Below, piece by piece: positions 4,161 through 18,718 of a stretch of 64,000 nt of DNA. The translations under genes were made by a program, and so were the position numbers. Position 1 is the first letter of the stretch. Every line of letters starts with the position of its first letter. Source of the DNA: Coleofasciculus sp. B1-GNL1-01 (GTDB taxonomy: Bacteria > Cyanobacteriota > Cyanobacteriia > Cyanobacteriales > Coleofasciculaceae); assembly GCA_040220235.1 (NCBI GenBank), contig JAVJTO010000006.1; one strand, given 5' to 3'. The notes below the pieces were generated by a model. It was not told where the DNA came from and searched no databases. It worked only from the letters and a program-made list of their open reading frames with translations.

Positions 4161-4234
4161 CGGGATGTAGCGCAGCTTGGTAGCGCGCCTGCTTTGGGAG
4201 CAGGATGTCGCAGGTTCAAATCCTGTCATCCCGA
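4161..4234 (+). tRNA. trnP: tRNA-Pro (anticodon TGG)
   Basis: Acceptor stem CGGGATG/CATCCCG, D arm AGCGCAGCTTGGTAGCGC, anticodon arm CCTGC-TTTGGGA-GCAGG, T loop GGTTCAAATCC; CCA not encoded. Confidence 0.97.
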
Positions 4235-11402: not shown

Positions 11403-11980
11403 TTCTTAATGTTTGTGTAGTGATTTACATCTTTTTTGGTCTAAAGTCAAATGATTTTTTTTAAAGACTGCGTAAAGTTCCCATCATCTTGTTGATCTGA
11501 GCAGGAAATTGGAATATTATACGAACAGATGAAATACAAGTCATACGCTTGTCTTACGGGCGACAAAAGCCGACCAACTCAATCGTGACCGATACTCTAT
11601 CCCTCTGGTATCGCTATGGCAGAAAAACTTTACTGTATTAAGCTTTGTAAATCGCCCTCAACCCCTTACTGTTCCCTGTTCCCTGTTAAGAGTTCCCTAC
11701 TCTCAACCGTTAACTTGAATTGTGTCCACCGACTTATCATACCGAAAGCAATATTGATTGGGGTTCTGACTAGAGTTTTATCCCCCTTGAGCATCAAATA
11801 TTCTCTATCGGATTTAACGTATTTTTGAGGAATAACTATTAAATTTATTTCTCAACTAAATTGCTGAATCTAATTGGGTAAAAGGGAATAAGTAGGTGAC
11901 ACTAAAAAAATTGCCCCCGGTATCAAATAAAAAAATAGCGAACAGCTATATTTTTAGTGGCACATCACCGAACCGAACTA

Positions 11981-12104
11981 AGCTGTTATGCATTTAAATT
12001 GGGTATTAGTAGCGAGCAAGATGCAAAGCCTGCGGCATGGCTTCGCTAAACGCACTACAAGGCTTTCACCCTTATTGACATTAAGGTTGAAATGCCGGAC
12101 AGCT
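11981..12104. mobile_element. 124-bp MITE with TA flanks and nested REP
   Basis: TA-AGCTGTTATGCATTT...AAATGCCGGACAGCT-TA imperfect terminal inverted repeats; left part repeated at ~49986-50024; internal 51 bp repeated in reverse complement at 47617-47667. Confidence 0.75.
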
Positions 12105-12147
12105 TAAACCTAAAAAAGACCACTGTAAACCTGTTTCAAGGGAAACT

Positions 12148-15100
12148 ATGATGAATCGTTCCTTTCAATCATCATTAGAAATTGAGCAACTCTACGGTAT
12201 TCCTGAACCAAATAAAAAACGTGAATTACAGCAGCGACTTGAACAGTTAAACCAAACTCAAACTTACTATCCCGCCGATTACTGTATTCATCAATTAATT
12301 GAACAAGCAGAGCGTCGCACACCAGACAAAATCGCGATTCGGTTTGACGGGCAAACCCTAACCTATCGGGAGTTGAACCGCCGCGCCAACCAGGTTGCCC
12401 ACTACTTACAAACGCTACAGGTTAAACCCGATGTACTGGTGGGGATATGTCTAGAGCGATCGCTCGATATGATCGTGGGTTTATTGGGGATTCTCAAAGC
12501 TGGAGGTGCTTATGTTCCCCTTGATCCCGCCTATCCTCAAGAACGATTAGCCCTGATGATTGAGGATTCCCAAGTCCCTGTCATCGTCACCGAACAAGAC
12601 CAACTGATAAGATTACCCGACACCCAAGCCCAAGTGGTTTGCTTAGATAGCGATCGACAGACCATTACCCAACATAGTTCAGAGAATTTAGACAGTGGTG
12701 TCACGCCTGACAACTTAGCCTACACCATCTATACCTCCGGCTCAACCGGGAAACCCAAAGGCGTCCAAGTGCTGCATCGTGGGGTGGTCAATTTCCTCAC
12801 CTCAATGAGTATCGCCCCTGGACTTACTCCAAAAGACACCCTGCTGGCTGTCACCACCATCTGCTTCGACATTGCCGCATTGGAACTGTATTTACCCTTA
12901 ATCGTTGGTGCTGATATTGTCTTAGTCACGCGAGATGTCGCCGCTGATGCAACTCAGTTAATCCCGGTTTTGCAAGAATCCGGGGCTACCGTCATGCAAG
13001 CCACCCCCGCCACTTGGCGGATGTTATTAGCCGCAGGTTGGCAGGGAAATCCCCAGCTTAAAATTCTTTGTGGGGGGGAACCCATGTCCCGCGAATTGGC
13101 GCGTCAACTCTTAGAACGCAGTGCTTCCCTGTGGAATATGTACGGACCGACGGAAACCACGATCTGGTCAGCCGTGCATCAGGTAGAATCGGCGGACAAG
13201 ACTATTCCCATTGGTCGCCCCATTGCCAATACCCAAATATATCTGGCTCATTCTGAGCAAAATTCATCTGACCCGATTAAATTTGTCCCAGTAGAAGAAC
13301 CGGGAGAATTGCTGATTGGTGGGGTTGGTTTAGCACGAGGGTATCTTAACCGACCTGACTTAACTGATGAACGATTTATTCCCGATCCCTTTAGTTCAGA
13401 ACCGGGTGCCCGTCTCTATCGCACCGGAGACTTAGCCCGGTACTTACCCGATGGGACTCTGGAATGCTTAGGTCGCTTGGATCATCAGGTGAAAATTCGC
13501 GGCTTTCGGATTGAACTGGGTGAGATTGAATCCGCCCTCTATCAACATCCGGGTATCCGAGACGCGGTGGTTGTCGCCCGTGATGACAGTTCGGGCGAAA
13601 AGCGCTTAGTTGCCTATCTCGTCAGTGACTTAGACGTTGAAAATGTTCCCCTAGAAACAAAATGCTGGGTAGCGTGTGAGGGAAATCCAGAAATTGAATT
13701 AACCACCAGCAATTTCTCGGTCAATAGTATTCGGTTACTTCATGCTCCCGCCTCCTGGCGAAACGGTCAATCCTTGACGCTGCGTTGCCAGTTTCCTGGC
13801 GTTCCCGATGAACTTCAACTTACTGGAACCATCGCTACAAAAGCCCTGGAATGGGTAGATGTTTCCCTAGACACCACCTCCAGCCAACAGACATGTTTAC
13901 GTCAGAGTATCAAACACATTGCCCAAACCCAGGGATTAGCCGTTCATGACTTACGCCGCAAAGAACCCCGCACCCCGCTAACGATTAATTGTCTGGCGGA
14001 ATTAGAATCGGGTGAAAAAGTCCAGGTGATAACGCAAAATATTAGCCAAGAGGGAATTTGCTTAAAGGCAACAACGGCTAATCCCTGGCAAATCGATCAG
14101 CGCCTATTACTCCGATTACAATTACCCGGAGGTGAAACCCCGTTATGGTTGCAAGGTCATATTGTCTGGCAGTTTGAAGACTATGTTGGCGTCCAGTTTG
14201 ATACTACAACCAGCCAGAAGGCGAAACTCCATCGCAGCTTAGGCAATTTGCGGACAGAACCCCGTATTCCCCTCCAGATCAAGGGTCGGGCGGAATTTGA
14301 GTCGGGTCAACAAGTGGAAGTGATCACGCAAAACTTCAGCCGCAATGGGATTAGCTTAAAGGCGCTCACCCCGACATTTTGGCACAACAATCAACCTGTA
14401 CTTTTGCGGGTACAACTGCCAGGGGTGGACAATCCCTTGTGGCTGCAAGGCACTGTGGTTTGGCATGTTGAGGAAAACGCTGGGGTGATTTTTGAGACCA
14501 CACCCACCCAGCAGGAGCAAATCCATCAGAGTATTGAGCTGATCGTTAAAACTCAAGGATTATCGCTGGCGCAGTTGCGATCGTTCCTGAGTGATAAGCT
14601 ACCGACTTATATGGTGCCCTCAACCTTTGTGTTAGTAGATAGCCTGCCCCTAACACCCAACCGTAAAGTCGATCGCAAGGCGTTACCTGACCCCAACCAA
14701 GCGCAACAGGTGGCTCAGGATACCTTCGTCGCACCGCGCACACCTGTTGAACAGGAGTTAGCCCAAATCTGGGCAACTGTACTCGATGTTGAGCGTGTGG
14801 GTGTGTATGACAACTTCTTTGAACTAGGGGGACATTCGCTGCTGACAGCGCAACTGTTATCGCAGGTGCGAGAACAATTCCAGGTGGAGTTACCGTTGTT
14901 TGCTCTGTTTGAAGCGCCGACTGTAGCGGAACTGGCTCAAACGATTACCGCCAAGACTAACGCTGATCCGTCTCAACCGGAAGGGGATGGGACAACGGTG
15001 ACGGGTACAATCGCGGTCACGAATTTAGCCAACGATGCGGTTTTGGATGAGACGATTTATCCAGAAAAGCCCTATCGTCAGCCAGACACTGCACCGGAAA

Positions 15101-16200
15101 AGATTTTGATTACAGGCGCGTCAGGTTTTCTGGGAGCGTTTTTATTGCGGGAATTACTCCAGCATACGAATGCTACCGTCTATTGCTTAGTCCGTGCCAA
15201 AACGCTGGAGGCGGGTCAGCAAAAAATTGCCGCGAGTTTCAACCGCTATTTACTTTCATCAGATAAGTTGGAGTCGCGGGTTGTCCCGGTGTTGGGTGAT
15301 TTAGCTCAACCGAGGTTGGGACTATCAGAGTCGCAGTACGAAGCGTTAACTCGCGAGATTGACTGTATCTATCACAATGGGGCGTTTGTCAACTTAATTT
15401 ATCCCTACAGCGCCTTGCGATCGGCAAATGTCCTGGGAACTCAGGAAATTCTCAAATTAGCCAGTAAAACCAAGGTCAAACCCGTTCACTTTGTCTCAAC
15501 GCTGGATGTGTTTCAATCGCCGCGCTATGCTCAGATGTCGGTGATTTTAGAACAGGATAGCTTGGAATCAGGGGATGACCTGTCTGATGGTTATGCTCAA
15601 AGTAAATGGGTGGGTGAGAAGTTAGTTAAACAGGCACACGCACGGGGGATTCCGGCGTCGATTTACCGACCGGGTATGATTACCGGACATAGCCAAACCG
15701 GGGCGTCTCAACAGGGGGATCTAATTGACCGATTAATTAAAGGGTTGATTCAATTGGGAAGTGCGCCGGAGTTGGACTTAAATCTCAGTTTGACTCCTGT
15801 AGACTATGTGTCCCAAGCGATCGCCCATCTGTCCCAGCAACCGGATTTATTCGGTCAATCGTTTCACTTGGTTAGTCCGGAGATGGTATCCTTACAGCAA
15901 CTCGTGGACGAAATTCGGGCTATTGGTCATCCAATTGAATGGATGGATTATTCTACCTGGCAAGATAAGCTGGTTCAGGTTGCCAGTTCCCAGCCTGACA
16001 ATGCGTTGAGTCCATTGGTGTTCCTGTTTACTCAATGGGTTGGTGAAAGCCAACGCCCCTATCTGGAAACAGCGGCTTTAGTCTCTCAGGCGTTTGATTC
16101 CCAGAATACGTTAGCGGGTTTAGCCGGAACGAATATTGTCTGTCCGTCAGTTAATAGTCAGGTGATTCGGGCTTATCTGAACTATAACCAGTTGGTTTGA
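12148..16200 (+). CDS. Standalone NRPS-like reductase: A domain (interrupted by 3 PilZ-like domains) - PCP - thioester reductase
   Basis: A cores YTSGSTGKPKG, FDI, YGPTE, YRTGD, GRLDHQVKIRGFRIELGEIE, LPTYMVP, PNRKVDR; insertion with RRKEPR..NISQEG and RTEPR..NFSRNG; PCP FFELGGHSL; R domain GASGFLG and YAQSK. Confidence 0.9.
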   Translation: MMNRSFQSSLEIEQLYGIPEPNKKRELQQRLEQLNQTQTYYPADYCIHQLIEQAERRTPDKIAIRFDGQTLTYRELNRRANQVAHYLQTLQVKPDVLVGICLERSLDMIVGLLGILKAGGAYVPLDPAYPQERLALMIEDSQVPVIVTEQDQLIRLPDTQAQVVCLDSDRQTITQHSSENLDSGVTPDNLAYTIYTSGSTGKPKGVQVLHRGVVNFLTSMSIAPGLTPKDTLLAVTTICFDIAALELYLPLIVGADIVLVTRDVAADATQLIPVLQESGATVMQATPATWRMLLAAGWQGNPQLKILCGGEPMSRELARQLLERSASLWNMYGPTETTIWSAVHQVESADKTIPIGRPIANTQIYLAHSEQNSSDPIKFVPVEEPGELLIGGVGLARGYLNRPDLTDERFIPDPFSSEPGARLYRTGDLARYLPDGTLECLGRLDHQVKIRGFRIELGEIESALYQHPGIRDAVVVARDDSSGEKRLVAYLVSDLDVENVPLETKCWVACEGNPEIELTTSNFSVNSIRLLHAPASWRNGQSLTLRCQFPGVPDELQLTGTIATKALEWVDVSLDTTSSQQTCLRQSIKHIAQTQGLAVHDLRRKEPRTPLTINCLAELESGEKVQVITQNISQEGICLKATTANPWQIDQRLLLRLQLPGGETPLWLQGHIVWQFEDYVGVQFDTTTSQKAKLHRSLGNLRTEPRIPLQIKGRAEFESGQQVEVITQNFSRNGISLKALTPTFWHNNQPVLLRVQLPGVDNPLWLQGTVVWHVEENAGVIFETTPTQQEQIHQSIELIVKTQGLSLAQLRSFLSDKLPTYMVPSTFVLVDSLPLTPNRKVDRKALPDPNQAQQVAQDTFVAPRTPVEQELAQIWATVLDVERVGVYDNFFELGGHSLLTAQLLSQVREQFQVELPLFALFEAPTVAELAQTITAKTNADPSQPEGDGTTVTGTIAVTNLANDAVLDETIYPEKPYRQPDTAPEKILITGASGFLGAFLLRELLQHTNATVYCLVRAKTLEAGQQKIAASFNRYLLSSDKLESRVVPVLGDLAQPRLGLSESQYEALTREIDCIYHNGAFVNLIYPYSALRSANVLGTQEILKLASKTKVKPVHFVSTLDVFQSPRYAQMSVILEQDSLESGDDLSDGYAQSKWVGEKLVKQAHARGIPASIYRPGMITGHSQTGASQQGDLIDRLIKGLIQLGSAPELDLNLSLTPVDYVSQAIAHLSQQPDLFGQSFHLVSPEMVSLQQLVDEIRAIGHPIEWMDYSTWQDKLVQVASSQPDNALSPLVFLFTQWVGESQRPYLETAALVSQAFDSQNTLAGLAGTNIVCPSVNSQVIRAYLNYNQLV

Positions 16201-16221
16201 CATAATTGCTGGATAACGACC

Positions 16222-16254
16222 AGATCCCCGACTTCTTGAAGAAGTCGGGGATCT
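16222..16254. terminator. Strong hairpin/REP just after the NRPS stop
   Basis: AGATCCCCGACTTCTT-G-AAGAAGTCGGGGATCT. Confidence 0.6.
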
Positions 16255-16280
16255 AATTATCGTATCTGCCAATTGAGTAT

Positions 16281-16342
16281 AGGGCGACCCGATCTAATTG
16301 AGTGGATACAGGTGTTCATTGAGGCAAGCGGGTCGCCCCTAC
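16281..16342. repeat. REP-type element AGGGCGACCCG...CGGGTCGCCCCTAC
   Basis: Similar copies at 47679-47741, partial 47756-47806, and 49776-49894. Confidence 0.8.
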
Positions 16343-16516
16343 AGGGGGAATCTCAGATGTGTGTTTGATCTATACACACCATAAGCGCGATCGCGGAAAT
16401 CTTATCGTCTCGGAAAAACTTGACCTGCTTCAATTTGCAGACAACCAACGACCCTTATAATGGGTAAAAGAATGTAAAGAAGTAATAACGACAAGATTTA
16501 GGGACACTTACCTATT

Positions 16517-16879
16517 GTGTTTGTTCTTAGCGGCTACGAATATTTCCTAGGGTTCTTACTGGCAAGCAGTTTAGTCCCCGTCCTCGCACTAGCAGCCTCA
16601 AAGCTGCTGCGACCCAGCATCCGTGACCCCGAACGCCGGACGACCTACGAATCTGGCATGGAACCGATTGGGGGCGCTTGGATTCAGTTCAATATCCGGT
16701 ACTATATGTTTGCCCTGGTCTTTGTGATTTTCGATGTAGAGACCGTGTTTCTCTATCCCTGGGCAGTGGCATTCAATCAGCTAGGACTACTAGCGTTTAT
16801 CGAAGCACTCATCTTTATTGCAATTCTCGTCGTTGCCCTCGTTTACGCTTGGCGCAAAGGAGCTTTAGAATGGTCGTAA
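16517..16879 (+). CDS. ndhC: NDH-1 subunit 3
   Basis: [37 protein letters not shown]. Confidence 0.97.
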
Positions 16880-17105
16880 ACTACCCCGTCCATGGTTAGG
16901 CATGGAAGAGGCTTTCCAAAAGCCTATGTTTACCAGCCTAAGTTCTGCCTTGAACTACGTTATGTCTAAGTGTTAAAGTTCGTACCTACAGATGCGTAGC
17001 TAGTCTGTAGCTCTACAACTCCAGCATTAAACAGGTTATAGGGAAAAGCCAGTGTGTTGGAGAAAGTACCGAGACATAACTTTGGCGAAGCTAACGTTAC
17101 CCCGA
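16876..17105 (+). ncRNA. Putative omega-RNA/HEARO structured RNA (3' boundary approximate)
   Basis: Motif order matches HEARO/omega-RNA as recalled; long-range pairing e.g. GTTATGTCT with AGACATAAC, CTACAGA with TCTGTAG, CTCCAGCA with TGTTGGAG. Confidence 0.7.
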
Positions 17106-17324
17106 CAGGGAGGGGCGCAAGCCCAATCAAACAACCCATATCCGTACAGGTTAAAAGCACGAGGAAAGTAACTACCCAGGCGACAGGCAAGGGCAATATG
17201 CCGAACGTCGGCGAGTAAATCCAAGGCGGTAGGGGTTTAGAGATTTTTGTACTTTACCTAGGAGGCGCGGCTTTCTAACTGCCCATACTATCTATGGATG
17301 AGGTATCCAGTCGCGAATATTTGG
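16876..17324 (+). mobile_element. Non-autonomous IS200/IS605-type element carrying an IscB omega-RNA (HEARO-like) scaffold, no ORF
   Basis: 5' GTAAACTACCCC + hairpin, then ACCAGCCTAAG...CTACGTT...GATGCGTAGCTAGTC...TTAAACAG...CCAGTG...TTGGCGAAGCTAACGTTACC; right end GCGCGGCTTTC...hairpin...GTATCCAGTCGCG; removal restores the ndhC/ndhK overlap; no target-site duplication. Confidence 0.8.
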
Positions 17325-18068
17325 ATGAATACAGATACAGCAAACGCGGCACCCCAAAAGCCGCAACCCAAAGAAAAAATTCTCAATCCCATCAGTCGTC
17401 CTCAGGTCACGCAAGACCTCTCAGAAAACGTCATTTTGACGACAGTAGACGACCTCTATAACTGGGCTAGGCTGTCCAGCCTGTGGCCCATGATGTATGG
17501 CACCGCCTGCTGTTTCATTGAATTTGCGGCGATGATTGGGTCTCGGTTCGACTTTGACCGATTCGGATTAGTGCCGCGTTCGAGTCCCCGACAAGCGGAT
17601 TTGATTATTACTGCTGGTACAATCACGATGAAAATGGCACCGGCGTTGGTGCGTCTGTATGAGCAAATGCCGGAACCCAAATATGCGATGGCAATGGGGG
17701 CTTGTACAATTACCGGGGGGATGTTCAGCGTCGATTCGACAACCGCCGTGCGGGGTGTGGATAAGTTGATTCCTGTGGATGTTTATATTCCTGGCTGTCC
17801 ACCTCGTCCCGAAGCAATTATGGATGCGATCGTTAAACTTCGTAAGAAGGTGGCAAATGAGTCTATCCAGGAACGGGCAACTCTGAGTCCAACCCACCGC
17901 TATTACAGCACCACTCATAGCATGAAGGTTGTACCCGATATTCTCACAGGTCAATACTTGCGGTCTGAAAATCGCCACACTCCACCGAAGGAGTTAACCG
18001 AAGCGATGGGAATGCCTGTACCCCCCGCACTGAAGTCTTCTCAACAGCAGGAGGTCAATCGTGGCTGA
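17325..18068 (+). CDS. ndhK: NDH-1 subunit K
   Basis: [32 protein letters not shown]; start set at the first ATG after the inserted element. Confidence 0.96.
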
Positions 18069-18597
18069 AGAAGAGTCCAAAGAACAGACCCAAGAAAATA
18101 CGGAAGAATCCCCACTCGCTGAGACAGGAGAAGTCCACGGCTGGCTGAAGGAAAACGGCTTTGAAACCGAGTTAATGGAACCGGATCACCTGGGAATTGA
18201 GGTGATTAAGGTACAACCCGAGGTCTTGATTCCCGTTGCCACGGCTCTGTATGCTTATGGGTTTAACTACCTGCAATGTCAAGGGGGTTATGATGTCGGT
18301 CCTGGCGAAGAGTTGGTCAGCTTCTACCATTTAATTAAGATCAGCGATGATGCTGAGCAACCTGAAGAAGTCCGGGTGAAGGTATTTCTACCACGAGAGA
18401 ATCCCAGCGTGCCATCTGTCTATTGGATTTGGAAGAGTGCTGACTGGCAAGAACGGGAAACCTACGATATGTTCGGCATTGTCTATGAAGGACACCCCAA
18501 CTTGAAGCGGATTTTGATGCCGGAAGATTGGGTAGGCTGGCCCCTGCGGAAGGATTATATCTCGCCTGACTTCTATGAATTGCAGGATGCTTATTAA
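18061..18597 (+). CDS. ndhJ: NDH-1 subunit J
   Basis: [37 protein letters not shown]. Confidence 0.96.
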
Positions 18598-18718
18598 TTT
18601 GAGCAACTCCTTCCAATCTTAAAAAGTAGTGCGAGCATCTTGCTCGCCTACTTTTAAACAAGAGTAAGTAAAGTCAGACCATAATTGTTACAGGTAGCTT
18701 TGCGAGCCAAATAATTGG

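Follow-up and report, generated by a model that had tools for sequence, protein, structure and literature searches.

We studied a 64,000-nt stretch of Coleofasciculus DNA (the window) in which the overlap between ndhC and ndhK holds a 449-bp ISC/OMEGA element without an ORF, inserted at TC|ATGAA. The element is of the non-autonomous ISC/OMEGA kind and carries an IscB-type ωRNA scaffold followed by a second structured RNA, absent from the preliminary description of this locus (Table 1). Our best overall explanation, in which we place evenly balanced confidence, is an ωRNA-only mini-transposon that lives as a parasite of an IscB made elsewhere, i.e., in trans, by way of which it is kept or homes. 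N|ATGA targets and protein-free and ωRNA-bearing PATEs are known; what is new here is the module in iscB's place, the part most likely to surprise specialists. At this locus filled and empty alleles occur naturally, a candidate IscB is resident in the genome and the guide is defined, which lets the trans action and the natural inter-lineage homing of ωRNA-only elements be tested directly. It also indicates that an ATGA-targeting transposon can occupy a core-gene overlap without splicing. If the element were inert and the module merely structural, the locus would still be a thoroughly documented case of a familiar kind of element.

Table 1 Features of the ndhC-ndhK-ndhJ region, in window coordinates
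Feature	Position	Strand	Evidence
Promoter-like -35/-10 upstream of ndhC	16434..16461	+	10/12 consensus match
ndhC, 120 aa; the element's first four bases complete its last codon, TCG, and its stop, TAA	16517..16879	+	PF00507
Predicted guide source, ndhC 3' end, including AAAGGAG (16856-16862) and the ancestral ndhK ATG GTC (16870-16875)	16856..16875	+	
Element, non-autonomous ISC/OMEGA (IS200/IS605)	16876..17324	+	Junctions, empty sites
HEARO / IscB-type ωRNA scaffold, including 5' end hairpin TCCATG..CATGGA (16889-16906)	16876..17100	+	RF02033, 141.8 bits
Two short hairpins past the HEARO model end, usual place of the iscB start	17098..17127	+	Folding; comparison with IscB-bearing copies
Structured RNA module without a catalogued family, made of a closing stem, two hairpins and a loop-loop pair; replaces the iscB ORF	17128..17242	+	
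3' end of the transposon, with an imperfect hairpin at 17266-17315 (inner part CCATA..TATGG) as the presumed site for TnpA	17254..17324	+	
ATGAA, insertion target and predicted TAM; its ATG is the likely present ndhK start	17325..17329	+	
ndhK, 247 aa	17325..18068	+	PF01058
ndhJ, 178 aa	18061..18597	+	PF00329

The insertion and its effect on ndhC and ndhK

In-silico deletion of the element gave GAA TGG TC|ATG AAT, which is the actual sequence of the empty congeners G003, G007 and G008 (G000 is the genome of the window and G001-G008 are its eight congeners). The exact insertion in the ndhC/ndhK overlap proposed in the preliminary description thus corresponds to real empty alleles, and comparison of these with the filled allele showed, also as proposed, no target duplication at the junctions. 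Neither an IscB nor a TnpA ORF was found within the element, again in agreement with that description. Its identification as an orphan ωRNA element was borne out by an Rfam search: the HEARO match spans the full model length, begins at the first inserted base and is far above the gathering score of 83. HEARO RNA, reportedly described by Weinberg in 2009, is said to be associated with an HNH ORF; the element lacks this ORF and adds a module outside the model. Hairpins had been described at both ends. The 5' hairpin region did beat shuffles in folding (z -3.4), whereas the 3' end alone folded no better than shuffles (z -0.4), though this end type recurs, with nine profile matches in G000. The ends are subterminal imperfect hairpins common to other copies, the 3' hairpin being weak alone.

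The claim that ATGA is an IscB-type target agrees with the available text of two sources: ISC transposons have N|ATGA targets and include protein-free PATEs (Kapitonov, Makarova and Koonin 2016, PMC4810608), and the IscB TAM measured for GstIscB is TTCAT, the reverse complement of ATGAA (Meers 2023, 10.1101/2023.03.14.532601). As far as the former text goes, the element resembles ISC transposons such as ISC1-1_MA and IS605B-1_MA of Microcystis in its 5'-GT start, its insertion 5' of ATGA, the lack of duplication and the subterminal imperfect hairpins, and would resemble them in the use of a Y1 enzyme in trans. Unlike these, it has no iscB/isrB ORF, carries an RNA module instead and lies in a gene overlap; the term 'start codon' is absent from the available text of PMC4810608. 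A Y1 TnpA acting in trans would likewise have pasted the present element 5' of ATGAA, where the junction is seen without duplication.

Two features made the insertion survivable: the element's GTAA start restores the NdhC stop, and the second Met of ndhK stands right after the cut. TCA TGA becomes TCG TAA at the junction and, because the element starts with GTAA, the NdhC protein is unaltered, just as the preliminary description had it. Only 11 of the 93 distinct element starts in the genus would supply a stop in this way, the others adding 1-30 residues, and the stop supply is therefore best read as a survival filter.

The consequences for ndhK are larger. All 16 empty alleles keep the ATG at 16870 in the ndhK frame and have AAAGGAG 7 nt before it, and three of the 16 offer no other Met within the first 30 ndhK codons; for these reasons we take this ATG as the ancestral ndhK start. 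The filled allele has this ATG at the head of a 9-codon ORF running into the element, which splits ndhK from its ancestral Shine-Dalgarno site and first ATG, so that the start must be Met3. NdhK from 17325 is two residues shorter (Met-Val lost). An alternative in-frame ATG, at 17298, lies inside the 3' transposon end, and neither ATG is preceded by a Shine-Dalgarno-like site (0.1 kcal/mol in the 3' end). Probably, then, ndhK starts at 17325 without such a site, at the second Met right after the element, which we likewise judge the likely present start; what the preliminary description overlooked is ndhK's loss of the ancestral ribosome-binding site and of its coupling to ndhC. Besides Met-Val, the insertion would thus have cost NdhK both of these. 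The ancestral site, with AAAGGAG (duplex -8.1 kcal/mol), lies in the region that the established architecture of IscB elements predicts as the ωRNA guide source. Other cyanobacteria have native ndhC-ndhK spacers of more than 100 nt, so uncoupling is survivable; the native long spacers in two such genomes (G034 and G036) gave no HEARO match. A replacement Shine-Dalgarno site in the 3' end was considered and rejected: end types B and C do have one (-6.6 to -11.6 kcal/mol), but types A and F, among which the ndhC/ndhK element belongs, have none.

Promoter-like matches at the level of the one upstream of ndhC numbered three against 1.3 expected by chance, and this site likely feeds read-through into the element. 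An internal -10-like site (16866-16871) scored 9/12, within chance, and was discarded. A 2126-nt RNA-library contig, 16479-18603, begins downstream of the promoter-like site, nearly reaches the operon limits and crosses the operon with the element unspliced, in line with the proposed read-through from ndhC; such contigs carry neither transcript ends nor processing information, may include DNA and drop rare forms. The element would thus be co-transcribed, unspliced, in the ndhCKJ mRNA, and trimming could yield an ωRNA with a guide from the ndhC 3' end.

RNA-level removal, in which the element would be spliced or cut from the mRNA in an IStron-like manner to restore the ndhC-ndhK overlap, is very improbable. 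The ancestral ndhK ribosome-binding site is lost, tobacco chloroplast ndhK translation depends on the ndhC stop according to the available part of PMC3326318, and group II introns, too, contain the module (see below), all of which would suit such removal; yet no contig joint skipping 16876-17324 was found in the four of four RNA runs examined (22 are listed), the 2126-nt contig retains the insert across the operon, and neither a group I nor a group II core is present in the element. IStrons, in which a group I intron is combined with IS605/IS607, likewise lie in coding sequence with little host harm. Unlike them, the unspliced mini-transposon favoured here has no intron core, no splicing is seen and harm is avoided by the end sequences. 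With cyanobacterial group II introns (RF00029) it shares the module only, being without intron domains.

The RNA module in the place of iscB

No Rfam match to the module was obtained at E<=5 for this copy, at E<=2 for seven loci or at E<=0.05 for 20 loci, ribozymes and riboswitches included, the sole exception being one RF00029 match that spans the module as an insert (L285). The module recurs in orphan elements of several families. A model built from 21 copies, with up to 25 candidates scored per genome, located it in at least 35 of 151 genomes of the order, frequently more than once per genome. Across 42 copies, 16 of 17 pairs were changed on both sides and 95.6% of cells paired, against 27-47% in slid controls, and none of 500 shuffles did as well; three stems guided the fitting of the alignment, and the pairs were chosen on that same alignment. 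The loop-loop pair, which was outside the original model, appeared as UA in 21 copies, CG in 18 and UG in three. The module is thus a widespread, strongly covarying RNA lacking an Rfam family and inexpensive to assay, and strongly covarying RNA motifs without a family have been a source of new ribozymes.

Its distribution follows the orphan ω-elements, where it occupies the ORF's place: in the genus it was present at 21 of 49 orphan sites versus 0 of 44 IscB-bearing sites. Twenty further loci included ten with HEARO upstream (eight over the cut-off) and six with a group II intron domain V/VI match beside or around the module; at L285 it lies within the intron match itself, and for the others group II intron anatomy would place it in domain IV. 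Module-bearing ωRNAs were clustered without forming one clade (14 changes versus 28 when shuffled), and module and ωRNA distances were correlated (rho 0.63, 0/2000 permutations). The ndhC/ndhK copy breaks three of the five pairs in one hairpin and one of the three loop-loop pairs and looks partly decayed.

As to the role of the module, our guesses are graded: a stabilising or protein-binding fold is somewhat the better bet, a self-cleaving ribozyme is unlikely and a mobile insert in its own right is quite unlikely. The features relevant to a ribozyme reading are a conserved unpaired core and the loop-loop pair only; two conserved strands may resemble those of twister-sister ribozymes, and no Rfam model matched. 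A coding remnant is argued against by frame-breaking indels and the covariation. A substitute for the ribosome-binding site is not supported, because copies are found beside type-C ends and inside introns as well. No description of the module was found in the literature covered, which did not extend to the key HEARO/OMEGA papers and their supplements.

The best explanation for the module here is a 110-nt passenger RNA domain typical of ORF-less mobile RNAs, decaying in this copy. More tentatively, and with rather more doubt than belief, we suggest that the module represents a class of functional RNA not yet described, acting either as a small self-cleaving ribozyme or as a stabilising fold that binds protein, and that it was repeatedly grafted into protein-free selfish cyanobacterial RNAs, at the iscB place or, in group II introns, at domain VI or the domain that holds the ORF. 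The ωRNA-plus-module elements would then be long-lived parasites of IscB in trans, landing on start codons to capture host promoters and homing from species to species, and ndhC/ndhK would be a case from nature that involves a core operon.

Outside the genus, module-bearing orphans were seen on the start codons of efp, rimP, the gene for NAD(P)H-quinone oxidoreductase subunit N and gatA (L280, L291, L249 and L243, respectively), and another begins right after an RNase P RNA (L239).

Candidate partner enzymes and the ωRNA family

G000 holds 19 HEARO matches (13 over the cut-off), 26 RRXRR and 13 Y1 matches. A genome search for an iscB with ATGA 3' junctions had been suggested, and an IscB with ATGAA junctions was found on contig C126, which codes for a full IscB (NF040563, 464 bits; HNH match, RuvC motifs); its family has ATGAA at 8/8 assigned junctions, from which the TAM was deduced. 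This IscB clade is present in all six carriers of the element and in two of the three empty congeners (G003 and G008), as judged from a quick protein tree in which HNH was confirmed for C126 only. A search for a tnpA with the same ends had also been suggested; no TnpA of this 3' end type was seen at the six Y1 loci inspected among the 13 in G000, two of these six being IS605-like elements with other end types. Excision may for that reason be rare.

The ωRNA of C126 itself is only 60% identical to that of the ndhC/ndhK element, and among full-length IscB-linked ωRNAs of the genus the highest identity is 68%. In 401 genomes of the order, with 23 outside loci inspected, the nearest match seen in an IscB-bearing element was ~82% and covered part of the ωRNA, and none of these elements had this 3' end; a protein-coding parent was not found. 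The empty allele offers the guide match followed by ATGAA, the filled allele the guide match followed by GTAAA, and no 10-nt guide match with ATGA occurs anywhere in the G000 genome. The C126 IscB may load the ndhC/ndhK ωRNA and cut the empty allele. With about an even chance, an ATGAA-type IscB in trans would cut empty or excised alleles and so bias repair towards the insertion; the element works like a homing element only if such cleavage is shown.

Like the PATEs of Meers et al. (2023, 10.1101/2023.03.14.532601), the element is protein-free and ωRNA-bearing, with the TAM ATGAA at its junction and an empty site that equals the target, and ωRNA-bearing PATEs need a nuclease in trans. In the available part of that source, the remark on action in trans concerns TnpB, and the pairs tested were cognate; the putative ndhC/ndhK pair is non-cognate, and its allele also moves between lineages (see below).

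The genus search gave 207 HEARO matches, of which 116 (103 in relatives, 13 in G000 itself), representing 93 distinct sites, were analysed, and junctions were assigned by end motif at 56 of the 93 sites. ATGA was present at 33 assigned junctions, and 18 of these open an ORF of at least 80 codons as its plausible start, against a background of 17.6% of tolerated ATGA sites with a crude gene caller (p 2e-6). By our reading, IsrB ends in G000 made such landings at background (2/11), and ends like those of the ndhC/ndhK element opened ORFs of at least 76 codons at 6/9 sites, the ATP synthase subunit a gene being one of them. The ndhC/ndhK site is one among many start-codon landings, without special-target status. 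Titles and abstract openings in the literature, the key HEARO/OMEGA papers lying outside this scope, gave no account of start-codon targeting.

Orphan ωRNAs retain compensatory changes at 24 of 51 pairs, and a 16-member ωRNA clade spanning families consists of orphans only (FastTree; with 46 IscB-linked rows, parents may be unsampled); on these two grounds we argue that elements with nothing but an ωRNA persist through IscB acting in trans. The ωRNA closest to that of the ndhC/ndhK element is another orphan, without the module, at the folD start codon (83% identity).

Several other insertions in G000 deserve mention. A 127-bp ends-only element (L174:5299-5425, C58) lies on the start codon of the gene for ATP synthase subunit a and is absent in 8/8 relatives, and a 259-bp IsrB-type ωRNA (L173:7785-8045, C64; between rplF and rplR) has a truncated ORF start that is joined to the start codon of rplR. 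Orphan ωRNAs were located upstream of a family 2B encapsulin gene (L175, C21) and of an RNase R-like gene (L176, C120), the latter common to five genomes with a long identical flank. Several IsrB ORFs (C34:53215-56302, C14 and C74) seem, judging by end motifs, to be interrupted by group II intron-like sequence. At ndhK in G004 (L006/L157, C58) and at folD in G008 (L027, C126), an IsrB-type element stands directly behind an older element whose 3' end is of the ndhC/ndhK type, at the same ATGA, which gives tandem stacks; an existing element end with ATGA may attract further insertions.

Filled and empty alleles across genomes

Twenty loci were examined, of which 14 were empty, five had the full element and one, in G004, had an ends-only derivative. 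The full insert measures 449-452 bp (G000, G001, G002, G005 and G006), with HEARO intact at 129-142 bits in all five, although the element is too young for intactness to indicate selection. Counting the G004 remnant, six of nine genomes carry the element; the empty sites foreseen in relatives occur in three of the eight congeners and at all 11 same-family loci examined outside the genus. G004 has a 138-bp ends-only remnant (51 + 87 bp) followed, at the same ATGA, by a 1.15-kb RRXRR (IsrB-type) element; the stop codon of this second element overlaps the ATG of ndhK. A contig pattern scan for independent insertions outside the genus was discounted: of its seven records, five were Coleofasciculus with this same insertion, which may overlap our genomes and hence not be independent, and two were empty alleles matched by chance. 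An A-to-G change 9 nt upstream of the junction, in the predicted guide-matching region, was noted in the empty G003 (L008) and in G004 (L157), where the ωRNA is lost.

Species relations were drawn from 22.8 kb in four regions. The five full carriers differ by 12-15% at fourfold sites, G004 is sister to the empty G007, and carrier monophyly was rejected (AU p 1.4e-7 for six carriers, 7.9e-6 for five). The element, by comparison, diverges by 0.9-1.5% among carriers versus 14% at fourfold sites, and it is near-identical among them together with ~170 bp of flank. Because the carriers are not a clade and share this near-identical tract, the allele, of single origin, moved laterally within the genus, carried with a short flank from lineage to lineage by homologous recombination. 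Five carriers and three empties show seven fixed differences within -120..+48, against at most one in any of 135 background windows; these limits were picked after inspection of the data, and the best of 56 partitions gives seven in 2/135 windows. The G004 element is near-identical to the others, and native sequence resumes from +16. Chimeric metagenome assembly as the source of the shared patchy element, suggested by the fact that several congeners are metagenome-assembled, is extremely improbable, for each carrier has private changes in the element and RNA-library contigs from other studies join the element to its flanks.

Other elements of the family behave similarly. The folD element differs at 1-3 of 370 nt among its carriers G002, G005 and G008 (L026, L027, L030; G000 is empty), the G008 copy having very short shared flanks and 2-3 of 370 nt changed despite 23-24% neutral divergence; the rplF/rplR element differs at 1-2 of 261 nt among G000, G001 and G005 (3/9 genomes). 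Over 15 shared sites in the genus the ωRNA diverges by 1.3% and the flanks by 1.4, 4.6 and 7.1%, compared with 8-17% in ordinary intergenic sequence.

A TA-MITE without guide RNA served as control (145 copies in G000; the window copy, 11979-12107, is 129 bp with terminal inverted repeats). Relatives held 58 copies, of which 25 were traceable to G000 and three of these 25 shared; divergence was 1.8% in the MITE and 1.1, 4.8 and 5.2% in flanks 1-30, 31-120 and 121-400. Sharing was 3/31 traceable sites for ω-orphans and 3/24 for IscB elements versus 3/25 for the MITE, with the same gradient, in small samples that leave ndhC/ndhK itself out and with a MITE set biased to young copies; no spread of ω-elements in excess of nuclease-free insertions was seen. 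The flank gradient over the 15 shared sites was accordingly rejected as proof of homing. Thus the homing proposed in the preliminary description is upheld in its pattern, a patchy inter-lineage spread in conflict with the species tree with short co-converted flanks, and is unproven as a process, since an insertion that is not RNA-guided shows the same. In the available text of a review (PMC13565253), non-restorative transposon homing is theoretical apart from a TnpB plasmid experiment; copying to an orthologous empty site would give the same patchy pattern, and the ndhC/ndhK pattern is indistinguishable from ordinary recombination, as in the MITE control.

An inert passenger is a possible, if doubtful, alternative: the ωRNA would be idle here, and a near-neutral insertion, not easily lost other than by precise excision, would have spread by ordinary recombination and drift. 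The equal sharing and gradient of the MITE would follow from it, as would the broken module pairs of this copy. The genus does recombine, with 6% of windows near-identical versus 1.3% expected, and in 32 of 130 short windows some five genomes are as uniform as the carriers. The insertion in G004, retained after loss of the ωRNA, and the low identity of resident IscB ωRNAs (C126) speak for an inert element and against homing by IscB in trans. Against inertness stand the carriers, 6/9 genomes from two clades, the very small extent of shared flank in G004 and around the folD copy of G008, and the long-lived orphan ωRNA clades.

It is improbable that the insertion is beneficial or domesticated, with the uncoupling of ndhK or the structured leader altering NDH-1 subunit output and a selective sweep following. 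High frequency with low diversity, the retention of both element ends in G004, the start-codon enrichment and the long native spacers of other cyanobacteria would accord with a benefit, but the 3' end offers no Shine-Dalgarno site, related elements lie at unrelated genes with patchy carriers, and G004 tolerates both the loss of the middle and the 1.15-kb second insert. We therefore retain the mini-transposon kept by IscB in trans as the preferred reading, at the even confidence given above.

Elsewhere in the window, a 1350-aa single-module NRPS-like protein (12148-16200; adenylation and thioester reductase domains) has a long repetitive insert between domains that looks PilZ-like. Short repeats upstream of ndhC (16200-16350) recruit many unrelated contigs and coincide with contig breaks in two relatives, and a tRNA gene lies at 4161-4234.
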